NCBI GenBank assembly: GCA_947090525.1
Contig: CAMUON010000001.1
Span: 388,473-452,472 of the forward strand
DNA length: 64,000 nt
Direction: 5' to 3'
Origin: an uncultured Atopobium sp.
GTDB lineage: Bacteria > Actinomycetota > Coriobacteriia > Coriobacteriales > Atopobiaceae
Part shown: positions 11,446 to 63,854 of the stretch, piece by piece
How the letters are laid out: every line of letters begins with the position of its first letter
How positions within the stretch are numbered: position 1 is the stretch's first letter
The notes under the pieces: model-generated
The model's database searches: none
Told to the model about the DNA's origin: nothing
What the model saw: only the letters and a program-made list of their open reading frames with translations
Program-made: the position numbers and the translations under genes

Positions 11446-11521
11446 GGGGATGTAGCTCAGTTGGGAGAGCGCTGCCTCCGCAAGGCAGAGGCCGAGGGTT
11501 CGACTCCCTTCATCTCCACCA
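11446..11521 (+). tRNA. tRNA-Ala (anticodon CGC as parsed)
   Basis: Cloverleaf GGGGATG/CATCTCC acceptor with G3:U70 (Ala identity pair). Anticodon stem CTGCC/GGCAG, loop TCCGCAA, encoded CCA. Loop position 33 reads C, which is unusual and should be checked with tRNAscan-SE. Confidence 0.75.
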
Positions 11522-11650: not shown

Positions 11651-11670
11651 CGGCGAGCGTATGAGCGTTT

Positions 11671-11886
11671 ACAAAACCCACACGCTCATATTAGAAAAAT
11701 ACCCCACTTTGTCACGTGTTCGGGCGCTGCACACGCGCGGGGCGGCCGAAACCGTTTTGCGTTTGCCCAGGTAATTTTCTTTTAGCATGTTGGTGCGGCT
11801 CTCAAAAGTGCCTACGAGGGCGATTTTCGGCTCCAGAACCCGTGACAAAGTGGGGTAAAGTTCTAATATCACTCATCACGTTTTGT
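11671..11886 (+). mobile_element. MITE-like 216-bp element, copy 1 (imperfect terminal inverted repeats of about 45 bp)
   Basis: Termini ACAAAAC...CATATTAGAAAAATACCCCACTTTGTCACGTG and CACGTGACAAAGTGGGGTAAAGTTCTAATATCACTCA..ACGTTTTGT are inverted copies of each other. A second, same-length copy is at 40513-40728. Confidence 0.55.
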
Positions 11887-12288
11887 TAGAGGCTAGCGCG
11901 CACATGTTTTGCGCCACATTTTAGTCTGCGCCCGCATCAGAGCCCGCCCGCACCCGTACTCGCGCTCCCGTCTGCACCCGCCCCCGCGCCCGTCTGCGTA
12001 CCCCCAGTCCTGCGCTCGCGTTCCTGCCAAACCTAGCGAATACGGAGAAGCAGGTAAATACGTAGATTTTACCGATAAGGATGGAGAACAAGCCACTGTA
12101 TTATCAATCGTATAGCACAAAGTGTCGGGGGGCGTCGCTTTTTTGGGTTTGCCCTGTGATACACTTTGAAGTAGCTCGCACCAAGCACAAGCGGTTGAAA
12201 TAGCGAAGAAGAACGAGGACTTGGCGTATAAAGTGAACTGGATGAGTTGTATCTTGTGAGCAGTATATCAACATAAGGAGAAACCCAC

Positions 12289-13134
12289 ATGAGTAACGTG
12301 AAAAAAGACACGCTCGATGCGAAAGGTTTTGCTATTCAAATTTATACTGAAGATTTTAAAAACGACTATATAAGTCTTACGGATATCGCAAGATATAAAA
12401 ATGTACATGAGCCTAAAGATGTTGTTAAAAACTGGTTAAGGATACGAGATACAATTGAATTCCTTGGTCTCTGGGAGACTATCCATAATCCAAATTTTAA
12501 AGGGGTCGAATTCGACTCCTTTAAAAAAGAGTCAGGAACTAATGCGTTTACCCTATCTCCCCAAAGATGGATTGAGAATACAAATGCGATTGGTATTGTT
12601 TCTAAGTCTGGTAGAGGAGGGGGAACGTTCGCCCATCATGATATAGCAATGGAATTTGCTTCATGGATTTCTGCTGAATTTAAGATGTATGTCATTCAGG
12701 ACTACAAAAGACTTAAGTCAGACGAGAACTCCAAGCTGTCATTAGGCTGGAATCTCAATCGTGAAATTTCTAAGATCAACTATAAAATTCATACAGCTGC
12801 AATCAAAGAGTATCTCTTAAAGGATCTTACCAACGAACAGCTATCTTATAAGTACTCAAGTTAAGCCGACATACTAAATGTGGCCCTGTTTAATAAAAGA
12901 GCAAAACAATGGCGTGAAGAAAACCCGCATCTAAAAGGCAATATGAGAGACTACGCAACCCTAAATGAATTACTGGTGCTTGCAAATATGGAAAGCTATA
13001 ATGCAATTCTTATCGGAAAAGGCATGAAGCAAAAAGAGCGAATGATAGAGCTTAGAAAGCTTGCGAGAACTCAGTTGTTGTCACTTGAAAAGCTAAACAA
13101 TGCAGGTATTAAGAGGCTAGAGACTAAGTCATAG
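12289..13134 (+). pseudogene. KilA-N domain (Bro-N-like) protein interrupted by an in-frame TAA at 12862-12864; AT-rich foreign DNA
   Basis: ORFs 12289-12864 and 12880-13134 are in the same frame, separated by one TAA. KilA-N-like N-terminus (GFAIQIY...ISLTDIARYKN). Local GC is far below the flanking DNA. Confidence 0.55.
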
Positions 13135-27703: not shown

Positions 27704-30043
27704 ATGACAAAAGTTGCTGAACCTTCTCTTCCTTTGTTTTCGAAAGGCGAGGGGGATGTGCCTTCGCAAAGCTTTGTCGATATGGCGCCAAGTGTGAGCG
27801 CCGCGGCCTCTGTAGCTGGGGGTACTTCGGCGGCTGCATCTGTAACAGCTGCGCCTCAGGCTGCAGCGCCTGTACCAGCGCCTGCTGCGCGTCCAGCGCG
27901 CCGTCGTGGCCGTCCACGGAAACATCCGCTCGTTGAGGCTGAAGCTACTGCTACGGCTGCTTCAACTCCTGCGCCTGCGTCAGCTTCTCATGCGAAACAA
28001 GCTTCGCAAAAAACGGGTGGCCAAGCCCTTGATGCATCACTTGATCATGAAACGTTGATTAAAGAAATCGAAGCAGGAACCTTGAGCTTAAGTGCAATGC
28101 CTAAGCGCCGTCGTGGTCGTCCGCGCAAAGCCGATGTAGAGGCGCGCGAAGCTGCTATCGCTGCAGCTCTTGAAGCCCAACGCCAATCTATGGCTGCGCA
28201 TGAGGAGTCGCGCGCAACTTCCACGCCCGCACCTGTGTCTGCACCCGCAGCTCCTGCAGCTGTGCCCGCACCTGTGTCTGTGCCTGCAGCTCCTGCAGCT
28301 GTAGCTTCTGCTTCTGTATCCGAGTCAGCTTCTGTACCCGCTTTTTCATCCTCACTGTCTCAAAACGATGCCTCTTCTGAACAGCAAACATCTTTGGTTG
28401 CTCGTGAAAGTCAAGCACTTACGCGCTTCGATCGCAAAATTCCGCGTGCTGAACGTGCTGAACGTGCCGAACGCACTGAGCGCCTTGAGCGCACAGAGCA
28501 TACCGAACGTGCTCAAAGAACGCCTGTTCAAGAGGTCCATGTATCTTTTTCTCACGATGCTCAAAAAGGGGAGTCTCAGCTTCTGACCACGCGTGCGCGT
28601 AGGCGTCACAATAGCGCGCAAAAAGCGCCCGCTGCTCCTTCCCGTGAGCAAGCTAATACGCATAAACAGCAAGAAGTTGCAAGCCAGCAGCGCTTTGTCA
28701 AGCAGCCAAGAAATCAGCGCCGCCGCAAGCAGGATCTCGCTCAAAATGCCGAGCCCACTCTTTCTCTCGAAGATTTGTCCTCGATGAAAGTTGCCGAGCT
28801 TCGTCTCAAGGCAGCTGAGCTCGGAGTTGAGTCTGCGCATGTGCGCAAGAAGGAGCTTGTGGAGGCTATTTACAAGGCGGCTGCTGCGTCTGAGGGCTTT
28901 TCCACTGTGTCCGGTGTTCTTGATATCCAACAAGAGGGGTATGCCTTCATTCGTACCGGCAATTATATGGGCGGCGATGATGATGCATTCGTGCATCAGC
29001 AGCTTATCCGCCAGTATCATCTGCGCCCGGGCGACTGGATCGAGGGTCGTGTGGCTCCCGGTCGATCAGGCAATAAGTTTCCTCCGCTGCACAAAATCAC
29101 AAGTATCAATGGCCGTCTTCCTGAGGAGCTCAAAAACCGTCCACGTTTCCGTGATTTGACGCCTATTTTCCCAGATGAACGCCTTGTTCAAGAAAATGGT
29201 CAGCAATCTATCACCGGTCGCGCGATCGATTTGGTAGCACCGATCGGCAAAGGGCAGCGTGGATTGATCGTGTCTCCTCCAAAGGCAGGAAAGACGACGA
29301 TTCTCAAGAAAATTTGTCAATCTATCACGGCAAATAATCCCGAAGTGCACCTGTTTTGCCTGCTTGTAGACGAGCGTCCCGAAGAGGTTACCGATATGCA
29401 GCGCTCCATCAAGGGCGTGGTTGTTGCCTCGACCTTTGATATGCCAGCAGAAAATCACACAGCAGTGTCGGAGCTTGTGATAGAGCATGCAAAACGCCTG
29501 GTAGAACTAGGCGAAGATGTTGTTGTGGTGCTCGATTCCATCACGCGCCTTGCCCGTGCGTACAACCTTGCGCAGCCGGCAAGCGGGCGTATTCTCTCGG
29601 GTGGTGTGGATTCTGCTGCGCTGTATCCCCCGAAGAAGTTCTTGGGTGCTGCGAGAAATATCGAGGGCGGAGGATCGCTCACTATTTTGGCGTCTGCGCT
29701 CATTGATACGGGATCCAAGATGGACGAGGTTATTTTTGAAGAGTTCAAGGGCACGGGCAATATGGAGCTTAAGCTTGATCGTGATCTTGCTGATCGTCGT
29801 ATTTTCCCTGCTATCGATCCTGTTGCTTCGGGCACGCGTAATGAGGACTTGCTTATCGACAAGGAACTGCAGCCCTTTATCTGGGGACTTCGTCGTGTTC
29901 TTGCGAATATGAATAATACTGAGCGCGCAGCGTCTGCGCTGGTTAAAGGCTTAAAAGAGACGACGGACAATAGGGACTTTTTGATTCGCTCGGCGCGCAA
30001 AGCTCAAGCGATTGATTACGTCGATTCGCCTTCTAAACTCTAG
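27704..30043 (+). CDS. rho: Transcription termination factor Rho with a long low-complexity N-terminal insertion
   Basis: C-terminal RecA-like ATPase (Walker A PPKAGKTT) and an OB-fold RNA-binding domain. Roughly 350 aa of A/P/S/E/R-rich N-terminal extension containing (A/T)ER repeats, as in actinobacterial Rho. Confidence 0.9.
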   Translation: MTKVAEPSLPLFSKGEGDVPSQSFVDMAPSVSAAASVAGGTSAAASVTAAPQAAAPVPAPAARPARRRGRPRKHPLVEAEATATAASTPAPASASHAKQASQKTGGQALDASLDHETLIKEIEAGTLSLSAMPKRRRGRPRKADVEAREAAIAAALEAQRQSMAAHEESRATSTPAPVSAPAAPAAVPAPVSVPAAPAAVASASVSESASVPAFSSSLSQNDASSEQQTSLVARESQALTRFDRKIPRAERAERAERTERLERTEHTERAQRTPVQEVHVSFSHDAQKGESQLLTTRARRRHNSAQKAPAAPSREQANTHKQQEVASQQRFVKQPRNQRRRKQDLAQNAEPTLSLEDLSSMKVAELRLKAAELGVESAHVRKKELVEAIYKAAAASEGFSTVSGVLDIQQEGYAFIRTGNYMGGDDDAFVHQQLIRQYHLRPGDWIEGRVAPGRSGNKFPPLHKITSINGRLPEELKNRPRFRDLTPIFPDERLVQENGQQSITGRAIDLVAPIGKGQRGLIVSPPKAGKTTILKKICQSITANNPEVHLFCLLVDERPEEVTDMQRSIKGVVVASTFDMPAENHTAVSELVIEHAKRLVELGEDVVVVLDSITRLARAYNLAQPASGRILSGGVDSAALYPPKKFLGAARNIEGGGSLTILASALIDTGSKMDEVIFEEFKGTGNMELKLDRDLADRRIFPAIDPVASGTRNEDLLIDKELQPFIWGLRRVLANMNNTERAASALVKGLKETTDNRDFLIRSARKAQAIDYVDSPSKL

Positions 30044-30114
30044 AATATTGGCCGCACCTACGCGCGCGGAAGCTGAAAACCTTTCCCTATGTAAATTCTC
30101 TTACGCTCACTACC

Positions 30115-30165
30115 GGATGTTTTGTGGATAGACCGAAGACATAACGGTCTACCACAAAACATCCT
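30115..30165 (+). repeat. Perfect 21-bp-stem / 9-nt-loop hairpin element, copy 1
   Basis: GGATGTTTTGTGGATAGACCG aagacataa CGGTCTACCACAAAACATCC. Recurs with about 75 bp of conserved flank at 63675-63725. Confidence 0.7.
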
Positions 30166-30572
30166 CCTCGTTCGCGTAAAAGTCCTACCAGGGTTTTCAT
30201 CTCGCGCGCGTAGCAGCAAGCCCGCGCGTGGGGAAACGGGTTTTAGCAGGAAAAGGCTTGCACGGGGCACTCACCAGCTTAAGCGCACATCCTGCGTGGG
30301 CATCTACCTGGGATTTCGGCTGACGTGCGCGTAGCAGCAAGCCCGCGCGTAAGGAAAGAGCTTAAACATGCAAAGGCTGGCGCAGATGCGTACCCAGCTT
30401 AAGCAAGCTCGTGCGCGCGCAAAAAGCCCCCGCGTGGGGGGCCTGGCTTAACATGAAAAATCTGGTGCAAACGCGCGCCCGCAGGCGATGAAAAGCCTGG
30501 TAGCAGACGTAAAGGAATTAGAAGTATTTTGTTGATGCAGGCGCGCCCCGGCTGAAGCTCACATGCAGGTAT

Positions 30573-31241
30573 TTAGAGTGCGTACGCCTGTTCTTTGAGC
30601 GCTTCTTCTGCATCCTCTGGATGAGCTTCAAGATAATCAGGATTTGCACTCAAAAATTCTGCGCGCGCGGGATCGGTCAACTTGCACGCTGCCAAAATCG
30701 CAGCTAGAGCGGTATCTATATCGTCGTGATTGTACTCAGCGCCCAGCGTCATCTGCTCACGTCCGCATCCTGCCGCAAACTTTTTGTTCTTAAACTTTTT
30801 CTTCAAACTCTTAAATTCAAGATCCTGCGGAGAATGAGAGGGTCTCAGGCGCGCACAGGCATCAATGAGCCCGCTCGTTTCGTCGCACATAAATAGGACG
30901 CACTCCATCTTGTGCTCTGGTTTTGGCAAATCGGGATTGAAGTCACTATTGTGCGTCTGAATGGCATGAATCAAACGCTCGCTCGCGCCCGCTTCTCTAA
31001 GCAATCTACCAGCGCAAATGGTGTGATCCTGGTCTCCATCGCAAACTTCCCAGTCAAGGTCGTGGAGCAGCCCCACTTGTCCCCAAAATTCAACGTGCTC
31101 AGCATCAAAATGCTCCGCAAAAAAGCGCATCAGCCGCTCGAGCGTTTGACCGTGGATGATATGAAATTCCTCTTGGTTGTAGCGCGTAAGGATCTCGAAC
31201 GCCTGCTCACGTGTAAGGTTTGTCGTCAGTTCGTCGCTCAT
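30573..31241 (-). CDS. HD-domain phosphohydrolase-family protein
   Basis: H...HD motif (LLHDLDWEV). AAAGGAG RBS. Confidence 0.55.
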   Translation of the reverse strand: MSDELTTNLTREQAFEILTRYNQEEFHIIHGQTLERLMRFFAEHFDAEHVEFWGQVGLLHDLDWEVCDGDQDHTICAGRLLREAGASERLIHAIQTHNSDFNPDLPKPEHKMECVLFMCDETSGLIDACARLRPSHSPQDLEFKSLKKKFKNKKFAAGCGREQMTLGAEYNHDDIDTALAAILAACKLTDPARAEFLSANPDYLEAHPEDAEEALKEQAYAL

Positions 31242-35755: not shown

Positions 35756-38056
35756 ATGAAACAGGTATCGCATGGCACAGGCGTACGGCATTCGCTTACT
35801 AAGATAGCCGTCGCATCCGTTCTCTCGACTACACTTGGAGTGGGGGGGGGGGTAGCTCTTTCTACGACCTCATATGCGCAGTCGCAAAGCGTAGATCAAT
35901 CTACTGATACTGAGCGGACATGGACTGAACACACTGCACAGTGGAGCGATGCATACGGACAACACCAGCCTTTTTCAAAGATTAATACACAAGGCAACTT
36001 AGAGGGCGTTTTTTGTAATCGTTCTGAAAGTTCGGGTGGTCAAACCAAAGTTTGGACTTCAGCAAAATACACCTTTTATCGAAGCGACCATGATGGGTAC
36101 AAAAAAGGCGACCTCGTTATCGAACCTATTAATGCCTCTGGCGTGATTAAAGCTGGTCCATCTAATAATGATTACAGGGTATGGCTAGAAGATAAAGAAA
36201 TTTATAAGAACGTAAAGCGTATTATCTTTAAGCAAGCGACGATCGCAGGCAACAAGGTTGGGTGCACCCTAAAACTAAACCAATGGAGTTATTCTCAGTT
36301 GTTTAATGGCATGCCTGCTGTCGAGCTCATAGATTTTCGGGGACTTACGTTCCAAACCGAAGCGGGTTCTTATCCAATTGCCTGGCGTATGTTTGAGAGC
36401 TCCCCTAAGCTCAGAACGATACTTTTTAATGCAAATATTAAAAAGCAATTTAGTGATATAGCATATTTTAACTATATGTTTGCAAAGTGTTACAATTTGA
36501 GACACATTCTGGCAAAAAGCCCAGATGAAGTGGTTGATGAAAGCACGTTACCTGCTTGTGATCTAAGCGGCCTTAGTGTCTTTGATACACAAAATGCAAA
36601 ATCCATGAAAGCCATGTTTGAATTTTGCCGTTCGATGACTGATTTTAAGTTTAAGGATTACACCAATTTTAAGACGAGCAAAGTTCAAGATTTTTCTTAT
36701 ATGTTTTCTGGCCTCCCTACGACATCCGCGCAGGATAAGCTTGAGAATGACTGGGAACCGGACACGTTTACCGTAGCAGAGGGCGAGTTCAAGGATATGA
36801 AGGGCATGTTTGAGCTAAAAAAGCTCGATCTGTCTTCGTTCGATACATCTTCCGCAAAGACCATGTACCGCATGCTGATTGGGCAAGAAGGCCTCACCGA
36901 GCTTGATCTTTCGGGTTCGTTTAAGATGTCGGAAAATACTTCTACAAACGAGATGCTACGGGGCGTGCATGCGCTGCAAAAGTTGAAGGTCAACAAGAAC
37001 ATAGTCTTTACGAACAGCATGATGCTAAATGAACCGAATGACAACATTTATAAAGAATATATCCGACCAACGTTTGATAGAAAGAACACAAAAACTTATT
37101 CGGGCAAATGGATACAAGAAGGTAAAGTTGACACAGCATATACTACAAAAGACTTTTGGTATACAAGCAAGATTAGTGAGCTCAAGAAACCCCTGGCAGA
37201 CAATGGTTCTCTTACGTTTGTTTGGCAAGAGAAAGATTCATCTGTGCCCTCTACGAACCAGCAAAACAAGCAAATTACGATCGTAACTAATGAAGGTTTG
37301 TTTGACAATAACGCTTTTGTAAAGTCTCTTACAACAGACAATAACGGCAAATTGAACGCTACTGACCTCCCAACAAAAACGAAGGAAGGTAGAAAGATTA
37401 CTGGCTGGTACAAATTAGGCGATCCCGCGAAAACGCCCGTTTCGCTGGATACCACAGAATTTAAAGAGAATACTACGCTTGTAGCACTCTTGGAAGCAGC
37501 TACACCGGGTGGCGCTGGTGATCAGGGCGGATCTGGCTCTGGCACGGGCAGTGGCGCTGGCACGGGTAGTGGCTCTGGTAGCGGTGTCGGCGGTTCATTA
37601 GGATTTGTGCCTCAGACTGGGGATACAGGCGCCGCGAGTGAACTTGTTGCGATGTATCGTCTGTATAATTCTTGGACAGGAGAGCATCTCTTTACGATTG
37701 ATAAGAGCGAGTATGATACCCTTGTTTCTGCAGGTTGGAAGGGTGAAGGCAGGATCAATAGTGTCGCCACGAAGGAAGGGGAGAGTGTATACCGCCTGTA
37801 TAATCCCTGGACGCATGAACACCACTATACAACCGATAAAGACGAGCTCGCTTCGTGCGTAGCCGCTGGTTGGAAGAACGAAGGCGTGCAGTTCCACAGT
37901 GTAAAGAATGGCGCGGTAGCTGTGTACAGCATGTATAATCCGTATGAAACGTCGTTCTACCACCACTACACGTCCGACCTCAATGAGATTAGCCGGATGG
38001 AGAAAGACGGTTGGATAAAAGAGGGCATCAAGTGGTACGCCGCGGCTAATTATTAG
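35756..38056 (+). CDS. Surface protein: signal peptide, DUF285-like (BspA/Mycoplasma-type 26-residue) repeats, G/S/T linker, three C-terminal YRLYNPxTxEHxYT...GWKxEG repeats; contains G11 tract at 35842-35852 (in frame, ON)
   Basis: N-terminal signal sequence. Motifs DLSxFDTSxAKxMxxMF. GSGSGTGSGAGTGSGSG linker. Three tandem repeats of about 45 aa. Confidence 0.65.
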   Translation: MKQVSHGTGVRHSLTKIAVASVLSTTLGVGGGVALSTTSYAQSQSVDQSTDTERTWTEHTAQWSDAYGQHQPFSKINTQGNLEGVFCNRSESSGGQTKVWTSAKYTFYRSDHDGYKKGDLVIEPINASGVIKAGPSNNDYRVWLEDKEIYKNVKRIIFKQATIAGNKVGCTLKLNQWSYSQLFNGMPAVELIDFRGLTFQTEAGSYPIAWRMFESSPKLRTILFNANIKKQFSDIAYFNYMFAKCYNLRHILAKSPDEVVDESTLPACDLSGLSVFDTQNAKSMKAMFEFCRSMTDFKFKDYTNFKTSKVQDFSYMFSGLPTTSAQDKLENDWEPDTFTVAEGEFKDMKGMFELKKLDLSSFDTSSAKTMYRMLIGQEGLTELDLSGSFKMSENTSTNEMLRGVHALQKLKVNKNIVFTNSMMLNEPNDNIYKEYIRPTFDRKNTKTYSGKWIQEGKVDTAYTTKDFWYTSKISELKKPLADNGSLTFVWQEKDSSVPSTNQQNKQITIVTNEGLFDNNAFVKSLTTDNNGKLNATDLPTKTKEGRKITGWYKLGDPAKTPVSLDTTEFKENTTLVALLEAATPGGAGDQGGSGSGTGSGAGTGSGSGSGVGGSLGFVPQTGDTGAASELVAMYRLYNSWTGEHLFTIDKSEYDTLVSAGWKGEGRINSVATKEGESVYRLYNPWTHEHHYTTDKDELASCVAAGWKNEGVQFHSVKNGAVAVYSMYNPYETSFYHHYTSDLNEISRMEKDGWIKEGIKWYAAANY
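35842..35852 (+). other. Homopolymeric G11 tract inside the signal-peptide region of surface protein 35756-38056
   Basis: Counted directly (encodes VGGGV). A change of one G would shift the frame. Confidence 0.8.
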
Positions 38057-38207: not shown

Positions 38208-40205
38208 TTAGTCGATCATCTCATTGATATCCCAGGTAAACGGTGCTGCTTTGCCATTGTATGCCTCATATGCAGCTTTCACTGCTCCTGTGAGCTTGGC
38301 GTCTTTCGGATTGTTCATCCACTTGACATACGCGTCAACATAGGCGTTGTAGTTTTTCTTTACTTCTTCTTTTGCATCTGCCTTGGGCGCTTCAGAGCCA
38401 AGAACACTACTCTGCAATCTGATAAGAAGCCCATAGCGCACATACTCGGGATCGGATGTGTAAGAAACGCGATTCATGCCCGCATACTCTCTATGTGGAT
38501 TTATCAGATATGCAGCTGCTTCGATAGCGTCTTTACGTGCTTTGAGCTTTGCTTCATCAGTTTTCGCAGTACTGTATTCAAGCTCTGCTTTCTTGAGCTT
38601 ATATATACACAGCTGTACATCGGGGTTCTTCGCGGGCACATCTGCTTCTTGTTTGAATGCCTTCCACTGTTCATTAAGCGCTTTTTTGGTCGCTTGAGTA
38701 TAGCCTTCAGTTTCCACGAACTCGCGGGTGACTTGGGTTGTGCGATAGGACGGCAGCTTCAGATAGGGTGATTGCGCGCGCGTATCTTTTGTAATTGCTG
38801 CAATCTTTTTATCCAAGTCGCCTACTTTGTCTGTTGTTGTTGCGTGATAGGCACTTGTATCTTTCGCGCAGAGCGTCATGTTCAGCTCTGGCAAGCCGCT
38901 TGGAGCATGTTCATCCTTCGCAAGCGCTGGTACCTGGTAGTTGTGGGCCTTGGGAGTGGCGTCAGCATCATCATATGCTGTAAATGTAACGTCGTAGGCT
39001 TTGGTTTCTGCATTATAGCGTACACGGCGAAGCTGGAGTTTGTCTCCACTTTGCACTTTATGTGTATCGTTAACCACGTCCAAAACTGCAGCTGCTTCTG
39101 TATAGCGAGCGCTTGCGGTTTTTGTTACTGCCTCTTCGCTTTTGCCATACATTTGCGATGCAATGCATTTGTATACGGTGACCTGCGTGTCTTTAAGTGT
39201 TGTGGTGCCTTTCGGGTCGTTGGTAAAGTGGAGCGTATAAGTAACGGGAACCACTTTCTTTTCGTCGGTTTCTACGGCTGTTTTTGCTTCATTAAAGGCT
39301 TTTTTAGCGGTATCATCATTTGGTTTCTTGTCCAGCTCAGCCTTTTTCTGTGCAAGCTCATTTAGGTTTTTCGCATACTCTGCGTCAAATTCTTTTTCTT
39401 TTTGAATAAGGGCAGCTGTAGCAGCTTGAGCTTTTACTTCCTCGCTGGCACTGGCCTCTTTTGCTTTCTTTGCGAGGTCTTCTGCTTTAGTTTTAGCAGC
39501 AGTAGCGCGCGTGGTTAGCTCTGTAACGGCCTCTGCACCTGTAAGTGTTTTACCAACAGCAGTTGTAACAGTTGTTGCGGCTTTACGTGTTGCGTCAACA
39601 AGGTCCTTAACAGACTCTTTTGCCTTGTTGAGAACAGCTTTCTGCTCTTTGCTTAACTCTTTGCTTAAGCTAGGCGTAGATGATTCGCTTGAGCTCGAAG
39701 GGTTGGAGCCGGTGCCGGTGCCCACACCGATAATAACATCGCTTGTGCCTGCTGCAGGAGCTTCCGCAGGAGTTTCTGCGGGCTTTCCAGGTACGAACCA
39801 TTGTTCATGCTCGTCTTTCCAGCCGCGAGCTACGCTATCGCTCACTTCAGACGGATTTGTAGTAAAGAAGTGTGTATGTTCTTGTTCGTAGGGATTAAAG
39901 AGACGATATACCGGCTGATTTGCAACCTCAGATTTTGCTGCAAAACCATATGCCTCAAATTTGTCGTCGAGTTTCATACCACGTGCAAGACACTCGTCTT
40001 TTTCTTGAGCATTTGTGGTATAGAGGTGATCGTCTCCCCAAGGATTATAGAGACGATAAATAGTTTCGACACCTTGTGTGCCTTTTACAGGGCTGTACCA
40101 GCCAATTCCTTCTTCATTCCAACCAACTGCACGAAGGCTTGCAGCTTCTTCTTCGCTTGGTGTATAGAGATGTTCATACGTATACGGATTATAGAAGCGA
40201 AGCAT
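38208..40205 (-). CDS. Secreted repeat protein (body): N-terminal YRLYNP-type repeats (3 or more), A/K/E-rich helical region, C-terminal domain; currently separated from its signal peptide by a frameshift at a C9/G9 tract
   Basis: Same repeat family as the C-terminus of 35756-38056. Upstream ORF 40226-40423 (minus strand) encodes the signal peptide in the -1 frame. Confidence 0.65.
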   Translation of the reverse strand: MLRFYNPYTYEHLYTPSEEEAASLRAVGWNEEGIGWYSPVKGTQGVETIYRLYNPWGDDHLYTTNAQEKDECLARGMKLDDKFEAYGFAAKSEVANQPVYRLFNPYEQEHTHFFTTNPSEVSDSVARGWKDEHEQWFVPGKPAETPAEAPAAGTSDVIIGVGTGTGSNPSSSSESSTPSLSKELSKEQKAVLNKAKESVKDLVDATRKAATTVTTAVGKTLTGAEAVTELTTRATAAKTKAEDLAKKAKEASASEEVKAQAATAALIQKEKEFDAEYAKNLNELAQKKAELDKKPNDDTAKKAFNEAKTAVETDEKKVVPVTYTLHFTNDPKGTTTLKDTQVTVYKCIASQMYGKSEEAVTKTASARYTEAAAVLDVVNDTHKVQSGDKLQLRRVRYNAETKAYDVTFTAYDDADATPKAHNYQVPALAKDEHAPSGLPELNMTLCAKDTSAYHATTTDKVGDLDKKIAAITKDTRAQSPYLKLPSYRTTQVTREFVETEGYTQATKKALNEQWKAFKQEADVPAKNPDVQLCIYKLKKAELEYSTAKTDEAKLKARKDAIEAAAYLINPHREYAGMNRVSYTSDPEYVRYGLLIRLQSSVLGSEAPKADAKEEVKKNYNAYVDAYVKWMNNPKDAKLTGAVKAAYEAYNGKAAPFTWDINEMID

Positions 40206-40423: not shown

Positions 40424-40512
40424 GATTCAAGCTAGAATGCTGTCGTCTGAGGTTACTTTTTATCCATTCGTATACAAAGCTATAGCGCATGCGGCTCAGC
40501 AGACATGCGTTT

Positions 40513-40728
40513 ACAAAACGCAGGCGCTCATATTAGAAAAATACCCCACTTTGTCACGTGTTGGAATGGCGACTGCTCGCAGGGCGAAGAAAGCTGTTTT
40601 GTGTTTCTCCAGGTAGTTTCGTTGCAGCTTGTTGATTGTGCTCTAAAAACTAGCCCGACGGACAATATTCGGCTCCCAAACACGTGACAAAGTGGGGTAA
40701 AGTTCTAATATCACTCAATACGTTTTGT
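40513..40728 (+). mobile_element. MITE-like 216-bp element, copy 2
   Basis: Same termini and same length as 11671-11886. The internal segment is diverged but collinear. Confidence 0.55.
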
Positions 40729-41179
40729 GAGAGGTGGAGCGCACAGGTGTTTGACCAGGTGCTTGACCCAGCACGCGCCCGCATTAGTCTGACGTGTAAG
40801 GCCCTCGCGCCCGCGTCATAAGCTACGCGTAATATTCAATAGCCAAGCTGCTGATATATCCAACGCACCCTTATTATCCTGCACTTTGTATAAATCTCCC
40901 AAAATCGCGCGCGAGAGAAATGTATAAAACACCCGAAATCGCTCAAAAATATAATATAAAACGCGCAAAAACAGCCTGACTGATTAGTTTTCTTTGGTTA
41001 ACACGTACGCAACAAAATGATTAAAAATAGGGGAATAAGCCCCAAGTTTGAATAGAAACGTTAACATTTGATGTCCAAATGAGAAAGTAGCCGCGCCTTT
41101 GGAGCTTTTTGGCTATTGTCTTGTGTAACAAAAAGAGCAAGTACGCGCTCTTCCGTATTCGATTTTTAAGGAGGATAAG

Positions 41180-46655: not shown

Positions 46656-49600
46656 CTAGAGACGCTTTTTTCTGCGGTAGCTGCGTTCTACAAAGCGCTT
46701 ACGTTTGATATAGCCAAAGGCTATGCTCATAATGCCTGCTCCCAAAGCCGATGCGCATCCCACAGAAAGGGGAGAGTGGAGGAAGAGATCTGCTGTTTGC
46801 GCAAGGCGAGATGATCCTTCGTGTTGAGAGTGCTCCTCCTCGCTTGGGTTGTTCGTATGCTCATCGTTAGTTGCGCGCCCGTGTGCATCGTCTTCATCAG
46901 TGTCTGCTGTATCGTCTCCGCGCTGCTTATCGATGACATTTTCGTCGTCACGTCCTTCTTTGATGCCTTTTTTATTTGCATCCTTTTTGTCGTCTTCTAC
47001 CTCGGTATCCTCATCGTCTTGTGAAGTCTTGTCATTACGCGCGTGTTTTGACTTCTTTGACGTTCCTTTGTTCTTCTTGCGCGCATGTTTCGTGTCCGCG
47101 CTTGCTTGTTCATTGTCTTCGAGCTCGTCGCTCTCGTCGTTGTTGTCGAGCGCTCCCTTCTTTTCGCCTGTTTCGCTCTTCTGATCAAGCTCATTGGACG
47201 AATTGTGCCTACGTGTTCTATGCGCATTTCGCTTTGCTTCAAGGTCTTCGAGTGCTTTTGCGAGTGCGCGTGAAAGGGAAGCATCAAAGCCAGCGTTTGT
47301 GTTTTGTTCCTGCGGTTTTAGCTGGCTGGGATCGTTTTTGCCTTCGTTTGGTTTTTGCGCGGGCGTGTTTTCTGCTCCTGAGGGCGTTTGAGTTTGATCG
47401 TTTCCTTTCGGTTTAGATGGATCCGTTGTTGTATCCGGCTTTTTCTGCGAAGGATCCGCTTGAGAACTGTGCGTGTTGTCGCCTTTAGTAGATGCTGGAT
47501 CTGCAGGGTATGCATGCTTTTTGTCGTCGGTTTCAAAGAACATTTTGAGCGCTTTTTGCACGCGCGCAAGAAATACGCTTGCGTCCTGCCAAATCGTGGG
47601 CTTATCGTTCGTATGGGGTTTGGGCTCTTCCTTGGATTCGGGTTGAGTCTCTATCGTGCCCGATGGGTTGGTGTTTGGCGTGGTATGAGGATCCTTTTTG
47701 TCGGAGGAACCAGGTGTTGCACCAGGGATTACGCTGGGATCAGTCTTACCACCCGTTCCAGGTTTCTCACCCGGTGTCGAATCTGGCTTTGTACCAGGGG
47801 CTACGCTGGGATCAGCCTTGCCGCCTGTACCAGGAGTCGTGCCGGTACCTGTACCGGGAGTTGTGCCGGTACCTGTACCTGGAACTGTGCCGGTACCCGG
47901 GGTTGTCTCGGGTTTTTTACCAGGATTTGAACCCGGATCAGTCTTGCCACCGGCTCCAGGTGTTGCACCAGGGGTTACGCTGGGATCAGTCTTCCCGCCG
48001 GCTCCAGGTTTCTCACCTGGGGTTGTGCTTGAGTCGGGAGTTGTACCAGTACCCGTACTTGCGCCCGTGCCAGGAGTTGTGCCTGTACCAGCGCCAGTAC
48101 CTGGAGTTGTGCCAGGGGTCGTACCAGTGCCGGGAGTTGTGCCCGTGCCGGGAGTTGTGCCCGTGCTCGTACCTGCGCCGCTTCCGCCATCATTTGGCTT
48201 TGTTTGCTGCGTATCCACGAAGTCCCGATGTACTTTCAATGCGTCTACAGCTTCCGTTACCCCTTCGCGTGTGATTTCAAATTTGTACGAAACGGCCTTT
48301 GCTTTTTTATGTTCAATATTGATTTCCGTGAGCTTATATTTACCAAAAACCAGAGCTCCTTTAGCATCGTCTGCGCGCGTTTGCGTATCGCGGCCGCTAA
48401 ACCAGCATCCGAAGGGCTTTTGCGATGCATCCATCCGTGGAATTTGTGCCTGATTGAGCAGATAGTCAAGTGTATTCGTCGATTCAGAGTGCGCAACTAT
48501 GTTCGAAGAAGTATCGATAATCCCAGCTTCTGAGGACATGACCACATGACTTTCGTGCGTTTTTTCGTCTTGCAAGACAAACGTCTTCTTGCTAAGCACG
48601 CCTTTGCCTTCAAGGTCCAAAAGCCGCGCGCGGAAATCGCCGCGTATCACTTCGCAGCGCGGAATTGCGTGCTCCGGGAGCTCATAGCTAATATCGTCTT
48701 TGTTAACCACTACACTATAGTTCCATTTCTTGAGCGCATCGCTCATTTTGTAGCCCGTACCTACTGAGTGAAGTGAAAGCGTGTATTTCCCCTTGGGAAG
48801 CAGGTGCTTAGAAGTTTGTGCGCGCCCTTCAGCATTTGTTTTGATTGTCGTGATGAGTTCGCCTTTTTTATAGCTTTTGCCGCTTTTGCCGCCTATGGTA
48901 ATTGCATCTTCTCCAGCATTTTTTATCTCAAATTCAGCGCCTGCAAGACTTGCCGCGCCAAGTGGGTTTTCATTGCCCTCTTTATCGAGGATGCGTGCGC
49001 AAATTTGTGCTCCTTTGAATTGTTCCGGCTTTCGCTGCGTGCCGGCGTTTGGATTGACCACAACCAGCGCATTTGAACCCGTGATGGTGAAGTCTTGTGC
49101 ATAGAGAACGCGGGCTTTTTCGTCCTTCGCATAGCTGAGTTCTAGCGTATAGGAACCTATAGGCAACGTTCTTCCTGTTGTTTGCGCAGCTAAACCGTCT
49201 TTTGCATCACTTGCGCCCACGACATGTGGATGCACCACCAAGCATGCCTCATCCTTTTTGTGCGTTCTACCTTCGACGACGACGTCTTGGGTATTCTTAG
49301 ACCGAATGGTGTAGTTGACATCGTCCATCTGCGCTTCTTGGGGAATGCCCAGCTCATTGAGGTCATGTTTGTTGCTCACGACACGGATATCTCCGCTTAT
49401 GACAGAAAGTGCAATAGTGTTCTTGGGTATATCGTTGCCGCCCGAACTTGCGGGTTTTTCGCTTAGTGTATGCGTGCTTTCAAAGTTTTGGCTGCTATAG
49501 CCTTTGGAGCTTTGTTTATGGCTGATTTTTATGCTGCCAAGGGGGAGTGCAGCTGCCCCGTCCAAACTTGGAAAAAGAAGCTTACTATCATTCGTATCTT

Positions 49601-51596
49601 TGAGATGTGCAGCGTCCAGGCTTACATGCCCGTTCGCGTCAGTTATGAGCATGTAGCTGCGGTCGGCTTTTGCTTCTTTATTCTCTGCTCCCTTGGTATC
49701 TGTGAAAAAGTCGAGCTGAATTTCGTTATGCTCAAGCGTCGCACTGCCTTGCGCCTTGTTTGTTTTGAGGCCTGAGTCCATGTATTCTATGATGTCTTTT
49801 GTGCGATAGTACTGCGGCGTTTTGATGAGGGAAAGCTCTGCAGTCTTGTCCTTTTCGATGCTGACTTCATATATGGTTTTGTCTGCCACGTAGCCTTTTG
49901 AGCGTTTGAGCTCTTTTACGAAGTAGTGCCCGCGCTTGAGGCTTACCGCATCGATGCTTCCGTCTGGCCGACTCGTGAGTTCACAGACTTTGTAGGTGCA
50001 TTCTTTATCGGTATATACGCCGTGCGTGCTTTCTGCAAAGCTGTAATTGGGATTTTTGTCGCTTAGGGCCGGTACTTTTGAGACCATTTTTGCTGCGAGC
50101 GCGCCTTTTTCAAGATTGATGGCGTCATATTTGATGGTGCCCGTGGTATTTGAAAGTACCTCAAAGCCTGATTTGTCGCAGGAACCTACCCACACTTTAT
50201 ATATATTTTTATCTTGTTTAGCGCTATCCGCTTCCTTCACTTCTGGGAATTGTTTGAGGTAGTAATACCTATTTCCATGGAGATATTCACTTTGGCAGCG
50301 ACCATTTTTATCTGTTGTAATATCTTTTGCCGCGACATAGTTCTTGTTGTATGCAGATGCTTGTTTGGTGCATTCCTCATCCGAATAGATTCGATACGTG
50401 GTATTTGCATGCATGGTGCCCAAAGCTTCCGTATTCAGAATGAGGTATCCGCGCGGACGCAGGTAGTAGTAGGGGCCCATGCGATGTCTATTGAGTATGC
50501 CGCGGTAGGCGATGATATCTTTTGGTAATTCTTTACTGATGATTTGTCTGAATACGCTTGTGTCGCAACGTGTATCGCCTTCGTTACATATTCCGATAAT
50601 ATTTCTACCCATCCAGTCGTGTACGATACCCTTCATGCCGAGGCGGTTGGCATTATCTGTTCCGTAGTAATCCTTTGACGCGTGTTCTGCGATCATCAGA
50701 TAGGTGCACACATAGTAGACATCATCGGTAAGGGGCTCGCCATTCCAGTCGGTTTTTGGCCACATACTCTTGTCGAAACCAGGGCCACCGAATCCGTAAT
50801 ACATGATTTTGAATGGAATATCGTAATCGGGATAGCGGCGGTCCATATCGTTGTCTCGGTCGCAAAGACACACCGCAAGACCAGGTTCTGGATCTTCCGA
50901 GGCAGTCCAGCCATAATATGCAACATCATCACCAACATAGTATTTAGGGGTAGAAGCGCGCGGGCGATCAGAGGAAAATTTATATGGTTTGCGCTCAATA
51001 CGAAGGCCCGAAAAATCGATAATGCTTGATGGGCTATAGCGGACATACTGGTTGGCACCGACAAAATCCTCAGCGAGTGTGTAGAGCGGCGAGAGAACGT
51101 AAGATGATGTCATGGCAGCAATTACAACAAGAGCGAGGCTACACCTGACTGCGCGTGAATACACGAGGTCAAAGAGCGTATGTGGCGTATTCAATGCGTA
51201 CTTTTTTGAAGGTCTCCAGATGCGTGCCTGCATTTTTTTGTGCACGAGCGTGCGCATGCTTTGGAGTATGGGTTTTTTTATGTGATTGTGTATCTTTTTT
51301 TGTAGCTGTTTATGTACCTGCTTGCTTATCTGTTGCATGCGTTTTCTCATGCGCCGCGCACAGGTATGAATGCCTATGCGTAAGGAGCTCATCGGAAAGT
51401 GCTGGCGATACCGTCTCATGGCTAACTCCTTGTGTGTACTCGACGATCCTGGGATAGCGCGGGCAAGCGTGTGAGCGCTGGCGACGTATGGGCTGTTGTG
51501 TGTCCGCCCATGCAATTCCACGTGTTTGCGCGTGGTTAGGATCCATTTGTCTCCTAAAATTCGTTTCCCAAAATCTGATGGAAAGGTGGCACACAT
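46656..51596 (-). CDS. Very large cell-surface adhesin (up to 1646 aa; probable true start near 51257): N-terminal globular domain, multiple Cna-B/SpaA-type beta-sandwich repeats, P/T/G-rich stalk, K/E/D-rich region, C-terminal sorting-signal-like LAQTA plus hydrophobic segment plus KRKR
   Basis: Signal-peptide-like segment at MRTLVHKK...ALVVIAAMT. Repeated GxYxxxEL...GY...Y.V motifs. Stalk encoded by TPGTG repeats. Hydrophobic anchor with basic tail at the C-terminus. Confidence 0.6.
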   Translation of the reverse strand: MCATFPSDFGKRILGDKWILTTRKHVELHGRTHNSPYVASAHTLARAIPGSSSTHKELAMRRYRQHFPMSSLRIGIHTCARRMRKRMQQISKQVHKQLQKKIHNHIKKPILQSMRTLVHKKMQARIWRPSKKYALNTPHTLFDLVYSRAVRCSLALVVIAAMTSSYVLSPLYTLAEDFVGANQYVRYSPSSIIDFSGLRIERKPYKFSSDRPRASTPKYYVGDDVAYYGWTASEDPEPGLAVCLCDRDNDMDRRYPDYDIPFKIMYYGFGGPGFDKSMWPKTDWNGEPLTDDVYYVCTYLMIAEHASKDYYGTDNANRLGMKGIVHDWMGRNIIGICNEGDTRCDTSVFRQIISKELPKDIIAYRGILNRHRMGPYYYLRPRGYLILNTEALGTMHANTTYRIYSDEECTKQASAYNKNYVAAKDITTDKNGRCQSEYLHGNRYYYLKQFPEVKEADSAKQDKNIYKVWVGSCDKSGFEVLSNTTGTIKYDAINLEKGALAAKMVSKVPALSDKNPNYSFAESTHGVYTDKECTYKVCELTSRPDGSIDAVSLKRGHYFVKELKRSKGYVADKTIYEVSIEKDKTAELSLIKTPQYYRTKDIIEYMDSGLKTNKAQGSATLEHNEIQLDFFTDTKGAENKEAKADRSYMLITDANGHVSLDAAHLKDTNDSKLLFPSLDGAAALPLGSIKISHKQSSKGYSSQNFESTHTLSEKPASSGGNDIPKNTIALSVISGDIRVVSNKHDLNELGIPQEAQMDDVNYTIRSKNTQDVVVEGRTHKKDEACLVVHPHVVGASDAKDGLAAQTTGRTLPIGSYTLELSYAKDEKARVLYAQDFTITGSNALVVVNPNAGTQRKPEQFKGAQICARILDKEGNENPLGAASLAGAEFEIKNAGEDAITIGGKSGKSYKKGELITTIKTNAEGRAQTSKHLLPKGKYTLSLHSVGTGYKMSDALKKWNYSVVVNKDDISYELPEHAIPRCEVIRGDFRARLLDLEGKGVLSKKTFVLQDEKTHESHVVMSSEAGIIDTSSNIVAHSESTNTLDYLLNQAQIPRMDASQKPFGCWFSGRDTQTRADDAKGALVFGKYKLTEINIEHKKAKAVSYKFEITREGVTEAVDALKVHRDFVDTQQTKPNDGGSGAGTSTGTTPGTGTTPGTGTTPGTTPGTGAGTGTTPGTGASTGTGTTPDSSTTPGEKPGAGGKTDPSVTPGATPGAGGKTDPGSNPGKKPETTPGTGTVPGTGTGTTPGTGTGTTPGTGGKADPSVAPGTKPDSTPGEKPGTGGKTDPSVIPGATPGSSDKKDPHTTPNTNPSGTIETQPESKEEPKPHTNDKPTIWQDASVFLARVQKALKMFFETDDKKHAYPADPASTKGDNTHSSQADPSQKKPDTTTDPSKPKGNDQTQTPSGAENTPAQKPNEGKNDPSQLKPQEQNTNAGFDASLSRALAKALEDLEAKRNAHRTRRHNSSNELDQKSETGEKKGALDNNDESDELEDNEQASADTKHARKKNKGTSKKSKHARNDKTSQDDEDTEVEDDKKDANKKGIKEGRDDENVIDKQRGDDTADTDEDDAHGRATNDEHTNNPSEEEHSQHEGSSRLAQTADLFLHSPLSVGCASALGAGIMSIAFGYIKRKRFVERSYRRKKRL

Positions 51597-52207: not shown

Positions 52208-52284
52208 GGTGGGTGTAGCTCAGTTGGGAGAGCGCCGGACCGTGGCTCCGGAGGTCGAGGGTTCGAGACCCTCTACCCACCCCA
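52208..52284 (+). tRNA. tRNA-His (anticodon GTG) with encoded G-1 and C73
   Basis: G-1:C73 extra pair (His identity element). Anticodon stem CCGGA/TCCGG, loop CCGTGGC, encoded CCA. Position 33 reads C (unusual); verify with tRNAscan-SE. Confidence 0.75.
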
Positions 52285-52314: not shown

Positions 52315-52390
52315 GGGTCGTTAGCTCAGTTGGTAGAGCAGGGGACTCTTAATCCCAAGGTCGAGGGTTCGACCCCCTCACGACCCACCA
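52315..52390 (+). tRNA. tRNA-Lys (anticodon CTT)
   Basis: First 27 nt match the textbook bacterial tRNA-Lys (GGGTCGTTAGCTCAGTTGGTAGAGCAG). Loop CTCTTAA, encoded CCA. Confidence 0.85.
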
Positions 52391-52435
52391 TTCTTTTTTG
52401 ATTCCAGTCACCATATGTACTACGCGTGAGAAAGC

Positions 52436-52680
52436 GCGCGTGCGCGCCTGCTTAAGCTGGGTATGCATTGGCGCCAGTCTTTTTACGTACAAACCTTTTC
52501 TCCACACGGGGGCTTTTTGCTGCGCATGCGGGCTGGAAACCCCTAGTAGACTGTCCACGCGAACAATTCTTTACGACGTGCCGCACGAGCGAGGAAGCTG
52601 TTTTGTGGGAACGCGTTGCGGGTTTCCGCGTTCGCCGCAAAACCGTTAGCGAGCGCAGATGATTATGGAGCTTGTGGCCT
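52436..52680 (+). repeat. Island-flanking direct repeat, left copy (about 75% identical to 63228-63430)
   Basis: GCGCGCCTGCTTAAGCTGG...GGGGCTTTTTGCTGCGC...GCGCAGATGATT shared with the right copy. Confidence 0.55.
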
Positions 52681-52681
52681 T

Positions 52682-52878
52682 CCGCGCGAGCGTAGAAAAA
52701 AACGGGTTTTTATCTACCGTTTTGACCCGATTTTGACCAAAATCGAGCTCCTCCCGCACCGCCCAAAAAATCCCCGACGCGTTTACCTGCGTATATAAGA
52801 ATTTTAACTAATAAAAATAGTTGAATTATTGATATTTTGGTAGATAACAACCTGATTTTTTCTACGCTCTCCCGCGCG
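52682..52878 (+). mobile_element. 190-bp TIR element B, copy 1 (termini CCGCGCGAGCGTAGAAAAAAACGGG / GATTTTTTCTACGCTCTCCCGCGCGG)
   Basis: Terminal inverted repeats. Its AT-rich interior is the reverse complement of the interior of the copy at 63434-63626. Confidence 0.5.
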
Positions 52879-53112
52879 GTATATACCCCGATATATATGG
52901 AAACGCTGTGGTGTGGTCAGAGCTACATCACAGCGATTCCTATCCCTATACAACAGAATAACTCATTTACACGCTTTTGGTTCTATAGCCCTAATATCCC
53001 AATTTTTCCTTAAAAATCGCCGTTGGCCGAAATGCCGATGAGTTTCAAAATAACAGAAGTATACTTCCCTTATACTATTTGAGCTTTTGTAAAGAGATAT
53101 GGTATTCGAGAT

Positions 53113-53252: not shown

Positions 53253-53281
53253 TTGTAATACATTTAGGAGCGTGTAACAAG

Positions 53282-63037: not shown

Positions 63038-63244
63038 ATGGCTAAAGATGATGTACAGCAAGTACAGGACGTCGAAGCGACAGACGCGCACGCAGAAGCT
63101 GCAGAAACCGATTGGAAAGCACAGGCGCGCAAATGGGAAAAACGCGCTAAAGAGAACAGCGCGGCAGCAGATGAGCTCGCCAAGCTTAAGGAGTCGCAGA
63201 TGACAGAGCTCGAACGCATTCAAGCGCGCATGCGCGCCTGCTGA
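63038..63244 (+). CDS. Small acidic/coiled-coil hypothetical protein (68 aa)
   Basis: ORF with an upstream GGAAGGA RBS-like sequence. Its 3' end runs into the right flanking repeat. Confidence 0.3.
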   Translation: MAKDDVQQVQDVEATDAHAEAAETDWKAQARKWEKRAKENSAAADELAKLKESQMTELERIQARMRAC

Positions 63245-63430
63245 AGCTGGTGAGTGCTCCGCATCAGCCTTTTCATGTACAAATTCGTTTCCTCACGCTG
63301 GGGCTTTTTGCTGCGCGTGAACAGAAAACCATGGTAGCAGGCGCAGATGATTTACAAGCATGCTGGTAGCTCGTGCAATAGACTTGCCATCAAGAATTTC
63401 TTGAGAACTTTCTTCTGCCGAGATTTTTAG
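63228..63430 (+). repeat. Island-flanking direct repeat, right copy
   Basis: See 52436-52680. Confidence 0.55.
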
Positions 63431-63433
63431 CCC

Positions 63434-63626
63434 CCGCGCGAGCGTAGAAAAAAACGGGTTTTTATCTACCAAAATATCAAAATTTCAACTAAATTCGATA
63501 GTTTAATTTCTTATATGCGCAGCTACGCGCTTTGGGCGATTTTTTGAGGTGCCGCGGGGGCCTCGAATTTGGCCAAAATCAGGCAAAAACGGTAGACAAA
63601 AAGGCCTTTTTTTCTACGCGCGAGAG
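63434..63626 (-). mobile_element. 190-bp TIR element B, copy 2 (inverted relative to copy 1)
   Basis: Same termini (CGCGCGAGCGTAGAAAAAAACGGGTTTTTATCTACC). The interior is the reverse complement of copy 1. Confidence 0.5.
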
Positions 63627-63674
63627 TGGGGGCAGAAAAGCCTGCCTTGTATATATTCATGTGCGCTCACTATC

Positions 63675-63725
63675 GGATGTTTTGTGGATAGACCGAAGAC
63701 CTAACGGTCTACCACAAAACATCCT
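63675..63725 (+). repeat. Perfect 21-bp-stem hairpin element, copy 2
   Basis: Identical stem to 30115-30165; loop aagacctaa. Conserved flanks GCTCACTA(C/T)C and ATCCTCCTCGTTCGC, plus about 60 bp of similar downstream sequence. Confidence 0.7.
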
Positions 63726-63854
63726 CCTCGTTCGCACGGATCTCCTACCAGGCTTTTCAGCGGCCGCGTGTGCGTAGCAAAAAACCAAGCGTGAGGAACG
63801 AGTGCAAGCTCGCTAACGCCTTCGCGGAAGCTTTTTCCTGCAGAAACCCTTCAC

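Follow-up and report, generated by a model that had tools for sequence, protein, structure and literature searches.

The BOX elements of Streptococcus pneumoniae have the composite arrangement boxA-boxB(n)-boxC, in which the number of boxB units varies, and they are restricted to their species and clustered with other repeat families (PMC3049150). Repetitive extragenic palindromic (REP) sequences, which together with bacterial interspersed mosaic elements (BIMEs) and REPINs are described from Proteobacteria (PMC3733652, PMC3337134), are palindromes of 20-40 bp tagged with GTAG or CGTC (PMC3733652). MITEs, the miniature transposable elements with inverted repeats, are recognized by terminal inverted repeats, a base-paired structure, a target-site duplication, AT-richness and a related insertion sequence (PMC3049150). 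This study concerns a 50-nt hairpin found downstream of rho in a 64,000-nt stretch of DNA from an uncultured Atopobium sp. (GenBank assembly GCA_947090525.1, contig CAMUON010000001.1, positions 388,473 to 452,472), which is called the window throughout. The hairpin is probably the conserved core of a lineage-restricted, non-coding, mosaic family of interspersed repeats. The family is previously undescribed, but it belongs to the well-known kind of which REP/BIME, BOX and MITE are examples.

The evidence on the family comes from about ten loci and ~163 kb of lineage DNA. The loci and contigs used for comparison carry L-numbers; L002-L010 carry the gene for an HD-domain hydrolase, and L143 and L145 cover the gap locus. 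The bacterium that carries the family is uncultured, lives in the gut or the oral cavity and is an Atopobiaceae-like representative of the Coriobacteriia. The closest named relatives are 'Jeddahella massiliensis' OL-1 (77% identity) and Collinsella (73%) for the C-terminal part of Rho, and Olegusella massiliensis (61%) for the HD protein. In the window, rho is the open reading frame (ORF) at 27704-30043 on the plus strand, encoding 779 aa with a long N-terminal extension and Rho_N, Rho_RNA_bind and ATPase domains. The next gene, convergent with rho, is that of the HD-domain hydrolase (30573-31241, minus strand), and the 529-nt spacer between them (30044-30572) contains the hairpin together with three units of a second repeat module, R.

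The 21-mer GGATGTTTTGTGGATAGACCG, which forms the 5' arm of the hairpin, is found at 30115 and 63675 and nowhere else in the window (0 occurrences expected from shuffles), and these are the positions at which a first-pass annotation had placed two hairpin copies. That annotation described a perfect 21-bp stem within 51 nt with about 25 conserved nucleotides on each side. However, the hairpin measures 50 nt, its 21-nt 5' arm and 20-nt 3' arm pairing as 13 bp, a bulged A and 7 bp around a 9-nt loop, and near-identity reaches only ~11 nt to either side, with patchy conservation of ~62-66% farther out. The near-invariant core as a whole is 72 nt long (30104-30175 and 63664-63735, 97% identity). 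Additionally, the window holds three copies rather than two, as a diverged copy of another subtype lies on the minus strand; the three copies are referred to as H1 (after rho), H2 and H3. When a 131-nt segment around the H1 hairpin was folded, the predicted energy was -46.3 kcal/mol for the plus strand (z = -6.4 against shuffles) and -56.9 kcal/mol for the minus strand (z = -6.8). The H1 hairpin lacks a T-tract on its 3' side, where TCCTCGTTCGC follows directly. A G+C-rich stem followed by a U-tract, which would mark an intrinsic terminator, is thus not what is seen here, and on this point the first-pass annotation was right.

The hairpin forms the middle of a longer module, H, which is an imperfect palindrome of ~155 nt. 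In H1 the outer inverted repeat, CTACGCGCGCG (30058-30068) and CGCGCGCGTAG (30203-30213), is complementary at 11/11 positions, and the extended outer arms of H are 79-84% complementary. A second stem of 5-9 bp sits across an internal loop between the outer repeat and the inner hairpin, and reads TTACGC/GCGTAA in H1, GTGCG/CGCAC in H2, CTCTTACGC/GCGTAGGAG in the L125 copy and GCACGAGC/GCTCGTGC in type 2. The whole module folds into three stacked stems, and all seven full copies fold alike. The GC content of the H core matches is 0.47-0.62, compared with ~0.50 for the window. The H family is non-coding, since the +2-nt and +26-nt indels of the type-2 copies rule out a conserved reading frame: they break the open frame that runs in a shared register through H1 and H2. 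A coding reading of the minus strand was also rejected, as the ATG there is not conserved. Two further identities for the hairpin were considered and discarded. Its arms do not match the RYYYAAC / GTTRRRY core sites of an integron attC site (by inspection), and it has neither similarity nor complementarity to the 36-nt repeat of the nearby CRISPR array, so that a tie to CRISPR or to a trans-activating CRISPR RNA (tracrRNA) was dropped.

H joins one to three R units on its 3' side. The block of ~350 bp that follows H1 had been described as complex; the internal and inverted repeats listed for it are present, but the block resolves into three tandem copies of a single 90-120-nt R unit. Within it, GCGCGTAGCAGCAAGCCCGCGCGT occurs twice (30206 and 30327), CCAGCTTAAGC also occurs twice, and CTACCAGG forms an inverted pair at 30185 and 30489-30503. 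The two modules meet in a 15-nt motif, J (CTACCAGGSTTTTCA), which is both the end of the H 3' arm and the start of the adjoining R unit. On the opposite strand, some R units have a small terminator-like hairpin with a T-run. In the third R unit of the rho spacer, R3, such a hairpin on the minus strand (CCCCCACGCGGGGG followed by CTTTTTG, 30440-30427) faces the convergent HD-hydrolase gene. A 20-nt unit, CACACAAAAGCCTCCCCGCA, stands in three tandem copies (63857-63918) after the pair of H2 and the sixth R unit; these copies are missing in strain L143, where the segment is inverted or replaced.

Copies of the element are dispersed to unrelated housekeeping loci, in both orientations and both upstream and downstream of genes. 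A 19-nt degenerate pattern matched 45 stretches of a metagenome collection, six of which are true members, all of them from assembly ODUA01; the remaining matches were rejected as members because they are without the hairpin and flanks. The ODUA01 members, the contigs retrieved via neighbouring proteins and the window together give about ten distinct loci. The element lies downstream of rho, downstream of ftsH (the L125 copy, 41 nt after the stop), between divergent RNase D-like and NUDIX genes, upstream of an MBOAT gene, upstream of the gene for RNase J, beside tRNA genes and upstream of gap-pgk-tpi. The H copies of L092, L110 and L120 are upstream of genes or between divergent genes, H1 and the L125 copy are co-oriented with the gene upstream of them, and orientation across all loci is mixed. 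These loci leave virtually no likelihood that the two near-identical 72-nt blocks of one 64-kb window are a simple segmental duplication in a single genome with no wider significance, the outcome that the first-pass annotation had itself listed as counting against its reading. The copies occupy at least nine distinct loci, in two subtypes and in several assemblies, and identity falls to ~64% just outside the core, unlike what a recent block duplication would show.

The distribution is narrow. Searches with hidden Markov models (HMM) and covariance models (CM) found no H members in 80 rho loci of other Actinomycetota, and none in five loci of closer relatives (L138-L142). The sister species L140 (HD protein 87% identical) has the same convergent arrangement of rho and the HD gene, with a spacer of 344 nt, and neither H nor R nor M modules (M is a further repeat, described below) were found in that spacer; the element is therefore missing at the orthologous rho site. 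The exact lower-stem pattern had no match in 185,579 species-representative genomes, a result that is weak on absence because contigs of metagenome-assembled genomes tend to break here. Most of the retrieved metagenome contigs with the HD gene (L002-L010) stop no more than ~420 nt past it, within the repeat-filled rho spacer, as repeats are expected to break assembly. No blastn match was found in plasmid and phage collections, and two pattern matches in viral contigs were set aside as unrelated chance hairpins. In Rfam 15 at the gathering threshold, the window matched RNase P and three tRNAs only, and a permissive search of the H region gave nothing relevant (best sub-threshold E values 5.9-6.8). 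Keyword searches of the open-access literature returned no relevant paper on repeats of this kind in Coriobacteriia or Atopobiaceae.

The same comparisons bear on the suggestion, made in the first-pass annotation because one copy follows rho, that the element is a Rho-dependent attenuator, and on the related idea of a rho-specific autoregulatory site. The same element stands in either orientation beside ftsH, the RNase J gene, the gap operon and tRNA genes, and neither the sister species nor any of the 80 other rho loci has it after rho. In characterised bacteria, moreover, autoregulation of rho works through the 5' leader, not the 3' region. An attenuator or autoregulatory role is extremely improbable, and the repeat family has no bearing on rho regulation.

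Strains of the lineage differ in the repeats that they carry at a given locus: R units are gained or lost, hairpin subtypes replace one another, and an H-R pair is inverted or replaced. The window and L003 have the 87-nt R2 of the rho spacer, and L001, L002, L005 and L008 lack it, which shows that the R copy number varies between strains. At rho, strain L002 has a type-2 hairpin with a 26-nt segment where the window has type 1, while the distal flank is otherwise the same. Upstream of gap, L143 and L145 match the window at 100% identity until ~63590, inside the right M terminal repeat; beyond this point the identity is ~74%, and their R and type-1 H point the other way. Strain L145 has a truncated type-2 H in place of the fifth R unit of the window, and the swapped segment is bounded by J-like motifs.

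The two hairpin subtypes have a common central lower stem and bulge position. The type-1 stem is GGATGTTTTGTGG-A-TAGACCG ... CGGTCTA-CCACAAAACATCC and the type-2 stem is AGCTGTTTTGTGG-C-GAACGCG ... CGCGTTC-CCACAAAACAGCT; they differ at four of the seven upper-stem pairs and at two basal pairs, and every one of these differences is compensated. Type 2 also has a 26-nt extra segment and sometimes a loop longer by 2 nt. H3 has two tRNA genes on one side and cas9 on the other. Its 5' flank is type-1-like, its hairpin is of type 2 and the 26-nt extra segment follows 3' of the hairpin, and this hybrid make-up suggests that the subtypes recombine. When seven copies were aligned, 96% of the cells were in standard pairs, compared with 32-50% when partner columns were slid, and eight pairs were changed on both sides. 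The hairpin has been kept across both subtypes through double-sided substitutions. Such changes indicate maintenance of the hairpin, not that it acts as RNA.

The identity profile points to the centre of the module. In pairwise comparison of five paralogous type-1 copies, the 50-nt hairpin was 98.4% identical and the next 11 nt (TCCTCGTTCGC) were 100% identical, whereas identity was 81% in the 11 nt upstream of the hairpin and 62-66% in the distal flanks. In decaying MITEs it is usually the termini that are the best-kept part. A centre that is better kept than the ends suggests either a sequence-specific constraint on the core or its recent homogenisation.

Conserved structure with compensated changes and the invariant 11 nt 3' of the hairpin are also what would be expected of small regulatory RNA (sRNA) genes, or of sRNAs derived from 3' untranslated regions, in which the conserved, unpaired CU-rich stretch next to the hairpin (UCCUCC / UUCCYC) would pair with Shine-Dalgarno sequences. 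In type-1 copies there is in addition a TANNNT-like hexamer (TAAATT, TATATT or TAAGTT) ~25 nt upstream of the hairpin. However, no sigma-70-like promoter or terminator belongs to the module, the -10-like hexamer is lost in type 2 (TCAAAT), and the putative promoter is enclosed by the outer inverted repeat, which fits a DNA palindrome better than a transcription unit. The asymmetry of G-U against A-C pairs indicates no consistent strand, Rfam has no match, and the element is missing in related species. The small-RNA family proposed in the first-pass annotation is judged highly improbable.

A different function would be local. H1 could be the 3'-end hairpin of the rho transcript, either a terminator that works without a U-tract or a block to 3' exonucleases, with the R units as weak terminators of the HD gene. 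H1 begins 72 nt past the rho stop, the L125 copy is similarly placed after ftsH, and both are co-oriented with the gene. A terminator scan of 29900-30700 found no canonical plus-strand terminator between rho and the HD gene, and three terminator-like sites lie on the minus strand within R3. Against this, the hairpin has no U-tract, the L092, L110 and L120 copies precede genes or stand between divergent ones, strains have the H-R pair of the gap locus in opposite orientations, and the sister species does without the element. A purely structural role would also leave the 98-100% identity of the core unexplained. As the explanation of the hairpin, a rho 3'-end function is unlikely but retains some weight; as an exapted local function of one copy it is compatible with a repeat family, and is possible but secondary.

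Several points weigh against the interpretation of the hairpin as the core of a mosaic repeat family. Collinsella, 'Jeddahella' and further Coriobacteriia have a strong GC hairpin, followed by a T-tract, 30-90 nt after the rho stop, the position in which H1 lies in the window, and a terminator role of H1 itself therefore keeps some weight. No Y1 transposase was found in the 163 kb by tblastn, though the query was only an approximate IS608 TnpA and the test is a weak one; more generally, a transposase was not found in the lineage DNA covered, and the ORFs beside the copies are housekeeping genes. For H, no clean pair of empty and filled sites with a target-site duplication came to light, and about ten loci are the whole basis for copy number and orientation bias. 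The compensatory changes all fall on the single split between type 1 and type 2 and amount to one or two events. Such changes could be produced without selection by intrastrand template switching in a DNA palindrome. Finally, a function selected in the host, for example that of a protein-binding site or of an RNA, would fit a near-invariant hairpin as well.

The interspersed-repeat interpretation is nevertheless preferred, and the mechanism envisaged for it is as follows. The repeats would spread and reshuffle as DNA, by one of two routes: either a trans-acting enzyme would recognize the hairpin core, whose sequence is invariant, or copies would exchange sequence by ectopic recombination and gene conversion. 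A copy that is transcribed, such as H1 in the rho 3' region, would form a 20-bp RNA duplex, which might stop 3' exonucleases, make RNA polymerase pause or terminate, or serve as a substrate of RNase III. An effect on rho, if there is one, would then be a by-product of the position of H1 and not the reason for which the element exists.

The first of these routes can be put in a more specific form. The core of ~61-72 nt, that is, the bulged 20-bp hairpin and TCCTCGTTCGC, might be the recognition site of an enzyme specific for hairpin or single-stranded DNA, which would insert, invert or swap hairpin cassettes between scaffolds bounded by CTACCAGGSTTTTCA. This would account for subtype replacement at a fixed locus, for inversion with a breakpoint in a palindrome, and for a centre better kept than the ends, and it would mean a new cassette-exchanging mobile system in the Atopobiaceae rather than a passive, decaying MITE. 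In this specific form the proposal is speculative and rather improbable. The protein-binding or recombination site listed in the first-pass annotation stays in play as a sub-hypothesis, as the core is invariant and strains show swaps and an inversion.

Table 1. Repeat modules in the window and their positions (Q copies in other contigs are given with the contig)
Feature	Position	Strand	Remarks
H1, type 1	30058..30213	+	starts 15 nt after rho stop; inverted repeats, fold, HMM and CM matches
H1 inner hairpin	30115..30164	+	loop AAGACATAA; begins 72 nt after rho stop
H2, type 1	63616..63775	+	hairpin 63675-63724, loop variant AAGACCTAA; HMM and CM matches
H3, type 2	52502..52666	-	hairpin GTTTTGCGGCGAACGCG / CGCGTTCCCACAAAAC at 52600-52643; HMM and CM matches
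R unit 1	30185..30306	+	opens with J (CTACCAGGGTTTTCA), then GCGCGTAGCAGCAAGCCCGCGCGT...CCAGCTTAAGC
R unit 2	30307..30409	+	presence varies between strains (see text)
R unit 3	30410..30503	+	closes with inverted J, 30489-30503
R unit 4	52443..52549	-	directly downstream of two tRNA genes
R unit 5	63233..63337	-	truncates 68-aa phage-scaffold-like ORF
R unit 6, degenerate	63745..63849	+	followed by 20-nt tandem repeat, 63857-63918
M element	52687..52871	-	185 nt; ~29-nt terminal inverted repeats GCGTAGAAAAAAACGGGTTTTTATCTACC
M element, second copy	63438..63622	+	right terminal repeat abuts H2
Q family, ~225 nt	11668-11889; 40510-40731; L092 6358-6590; L120 392-627		

The H, R and M copies of the window are all within three spacers (30044-30572, 52388-52900 and 63224-64000; Table 1). 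M often adjoins H, and further M copies are found in L110, L118, L120 and L145. Each M terminal repeat is itself palindromic, with GTAGA...TCTAC ends. A direct repeat of 3-4 nt (GCGA, CAA, CGA) is present at both ends in three of six M copies and may be a target-site duplication. The Q family has near-perfect terminal inverted repeats of ~33 nt, ATATTAGAAAAATACCCCACTTTGTCACGTGTT / AACACGTGACAAAGTGGGGTAAAGTTCTAATAT, and a centre, CCCAGGTAG, that is the reverse complement of the J motif; Q adjoins R in two ODUA01 metagenome contigs. From these features M and Q look like classical MITEs.

Two of the spacers lie on either side of a CRISPR-Cas island. The window has a complete type II-A locus (53216-60630) with cas9, cas1, cas2, csn2 and an array, and its GC content is 40-44%, compared with ~50% elsewhere. 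The cas9 product is 1422 aa long from a TTG start here and 1394-1401 aa in other strains, and the array (59420-60630) has ~18 repeats of the 36-nt GTTTTGGAGCAGTGTCATTTTGACTGGTAATCAAAC. Just upstream of or overlapping the cas9 start, the segment 53100-53245 contains a repeat-like ATTTTGACTTGCAGTGTCACTTTGACTGGAATCAAAGC, and the minus strand has a terminator-like hairpin, AAGCCCCTCATCTGAGGGGCTTTT, at ~53118-53140; the two have the look of a tracrRNA gene transcribed on the minus strand. The island is flanked by the same module order on both sides, a minus-strand R and then M, and it may have been acquired or rearranged through the repeats. Phage remnants follow by the array (62038-63244), namely a VG15-family protein (62038-62904) and a 68-aa ORF (63038-63244), truncated by R5, with similarity to a phage scaffolding protein's N-terminus.

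Other features of the window were recorded in passing. The gene for a KilA-N domain protein is at 12289-12864. Two large, convergent DUF5648-domain genes (35756-38056, plus strand; 38208-40205, minus strand), one of which also has DUF285, have a GC content of 44-47%, and the gene at 46656-51596 (minus strand) encodes a 1646-aa protein with internal tandem repeats; the DUF5648 proteins and the 1646-aa protein are probably surface proteins. RNase P RNA (class A, 297.8 bits) is at 2395-2746 on the minus strand. The tRNA genes are at 11446-11518, 52209-52281 and 52315-52387, and repeat modules start ~45 nt past the last of them. The HD-hydrolase gene is located between lysS and clpB in the more distant relatives L138 and L142 (protein 72-74% identical), and has moved next to rho in the window species and in the sister species with the 87%-identical HD protein. 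Several database entries call a fused or adjacent ORF of the HD gene 'lysyl-tRNA synthetase class 2'.

The repeats have practical consequences. They break metagenome assemblies of this lineage, and binning and annotation should allow for them. They also create strain-level structural variation beside essential genes (rho, ftsH, the RNase J gene and the gap operon) and on both sides of the CRISPR island, and this variation would make them useful typing markers. MITEs do not usually show an invariant centre and variable ends in two compensated subtypes, and the pattern hints at a mechanism of recognition or homogenisation.

When the family is set beside the known kinds of repeat, each comparison holds in part. 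H has the terminal inverted repeats and the base-paired structure of a MITE, and it resembles the Correia/NEMIS elements of Neisseria, the ERIC/IRU elements of enterobacteria and RUP in being an intergenic imperfect palindrome of 100-200 nt that would be co-transcribed with its neighbours. In Correia elements the long RNA duplex is a substrate of RNase III. However, H is not AT-rich and has no known parent insertion sequence, no insertion sequence or transposase was seen in the lineage DNA examined, and it is the centre of H rather than its termini that is best conserved. No flanking direct repeat was found around the H copies as a sign of target-site duplication; the boundaries of H merge into R and M. 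A MITE with a minisatellite from Porphyromonas gingivalis is likewise a non-autonomous element with an internal tandem array, but it differs in sequence, host and structure (PMC4596501).

The first-pass annotation had also offered a REP/BIME-like element, and this description suits a dispersed, mosaic, structured, intergenic and strain-variable repeat. As in REPs and BIMEs, extragenic palindromes and short motifs form mosaics, often between convergent genes, and protection of mRNA 3' ends is a possible shared effect. The formal definition of a REP does not fit. The H hairpin is 50 nt long within a palindrome of ~155 nt, outside the 20-40 bp of REPs, and its stems are not G+C-rich. GTAG/CTAC is 2.4-fold enriched in the repeat regions, and in both subtypes a CTAC precedes the stem by 1 nt (CTACC-GGATG and CTACC-AGCTG). 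The polarity of the tetranucleotide is opposite, however: H has CTAC 5' of the stem where REPs have GTAG, and its GTAG is on the other strand, 3' of the palindrome. No gene for a REP-associated tyrosine transposase (RAYT) was found in the 163 kb with an approximate query.

The closest system in behaviour is BOX, a composite intergenic repeat whose end modules are structured and whose internal module stands in tandem. The host of BOX belongs to another phylum, and sequence homology is not expected. The R units are also longer than boxB (90-120 nt compared with 45 nt), and the conserved part of H is a single bulged 20-bp hairpin in two compensated subtypes. With these differences, the H-R family is, like BOX, a composite repeat with a strain-variable number of tandem internal units, restricted to one species and its close relatives, nested among other repeat families (here M and Q) and predicted to fold extensively if transcribed.

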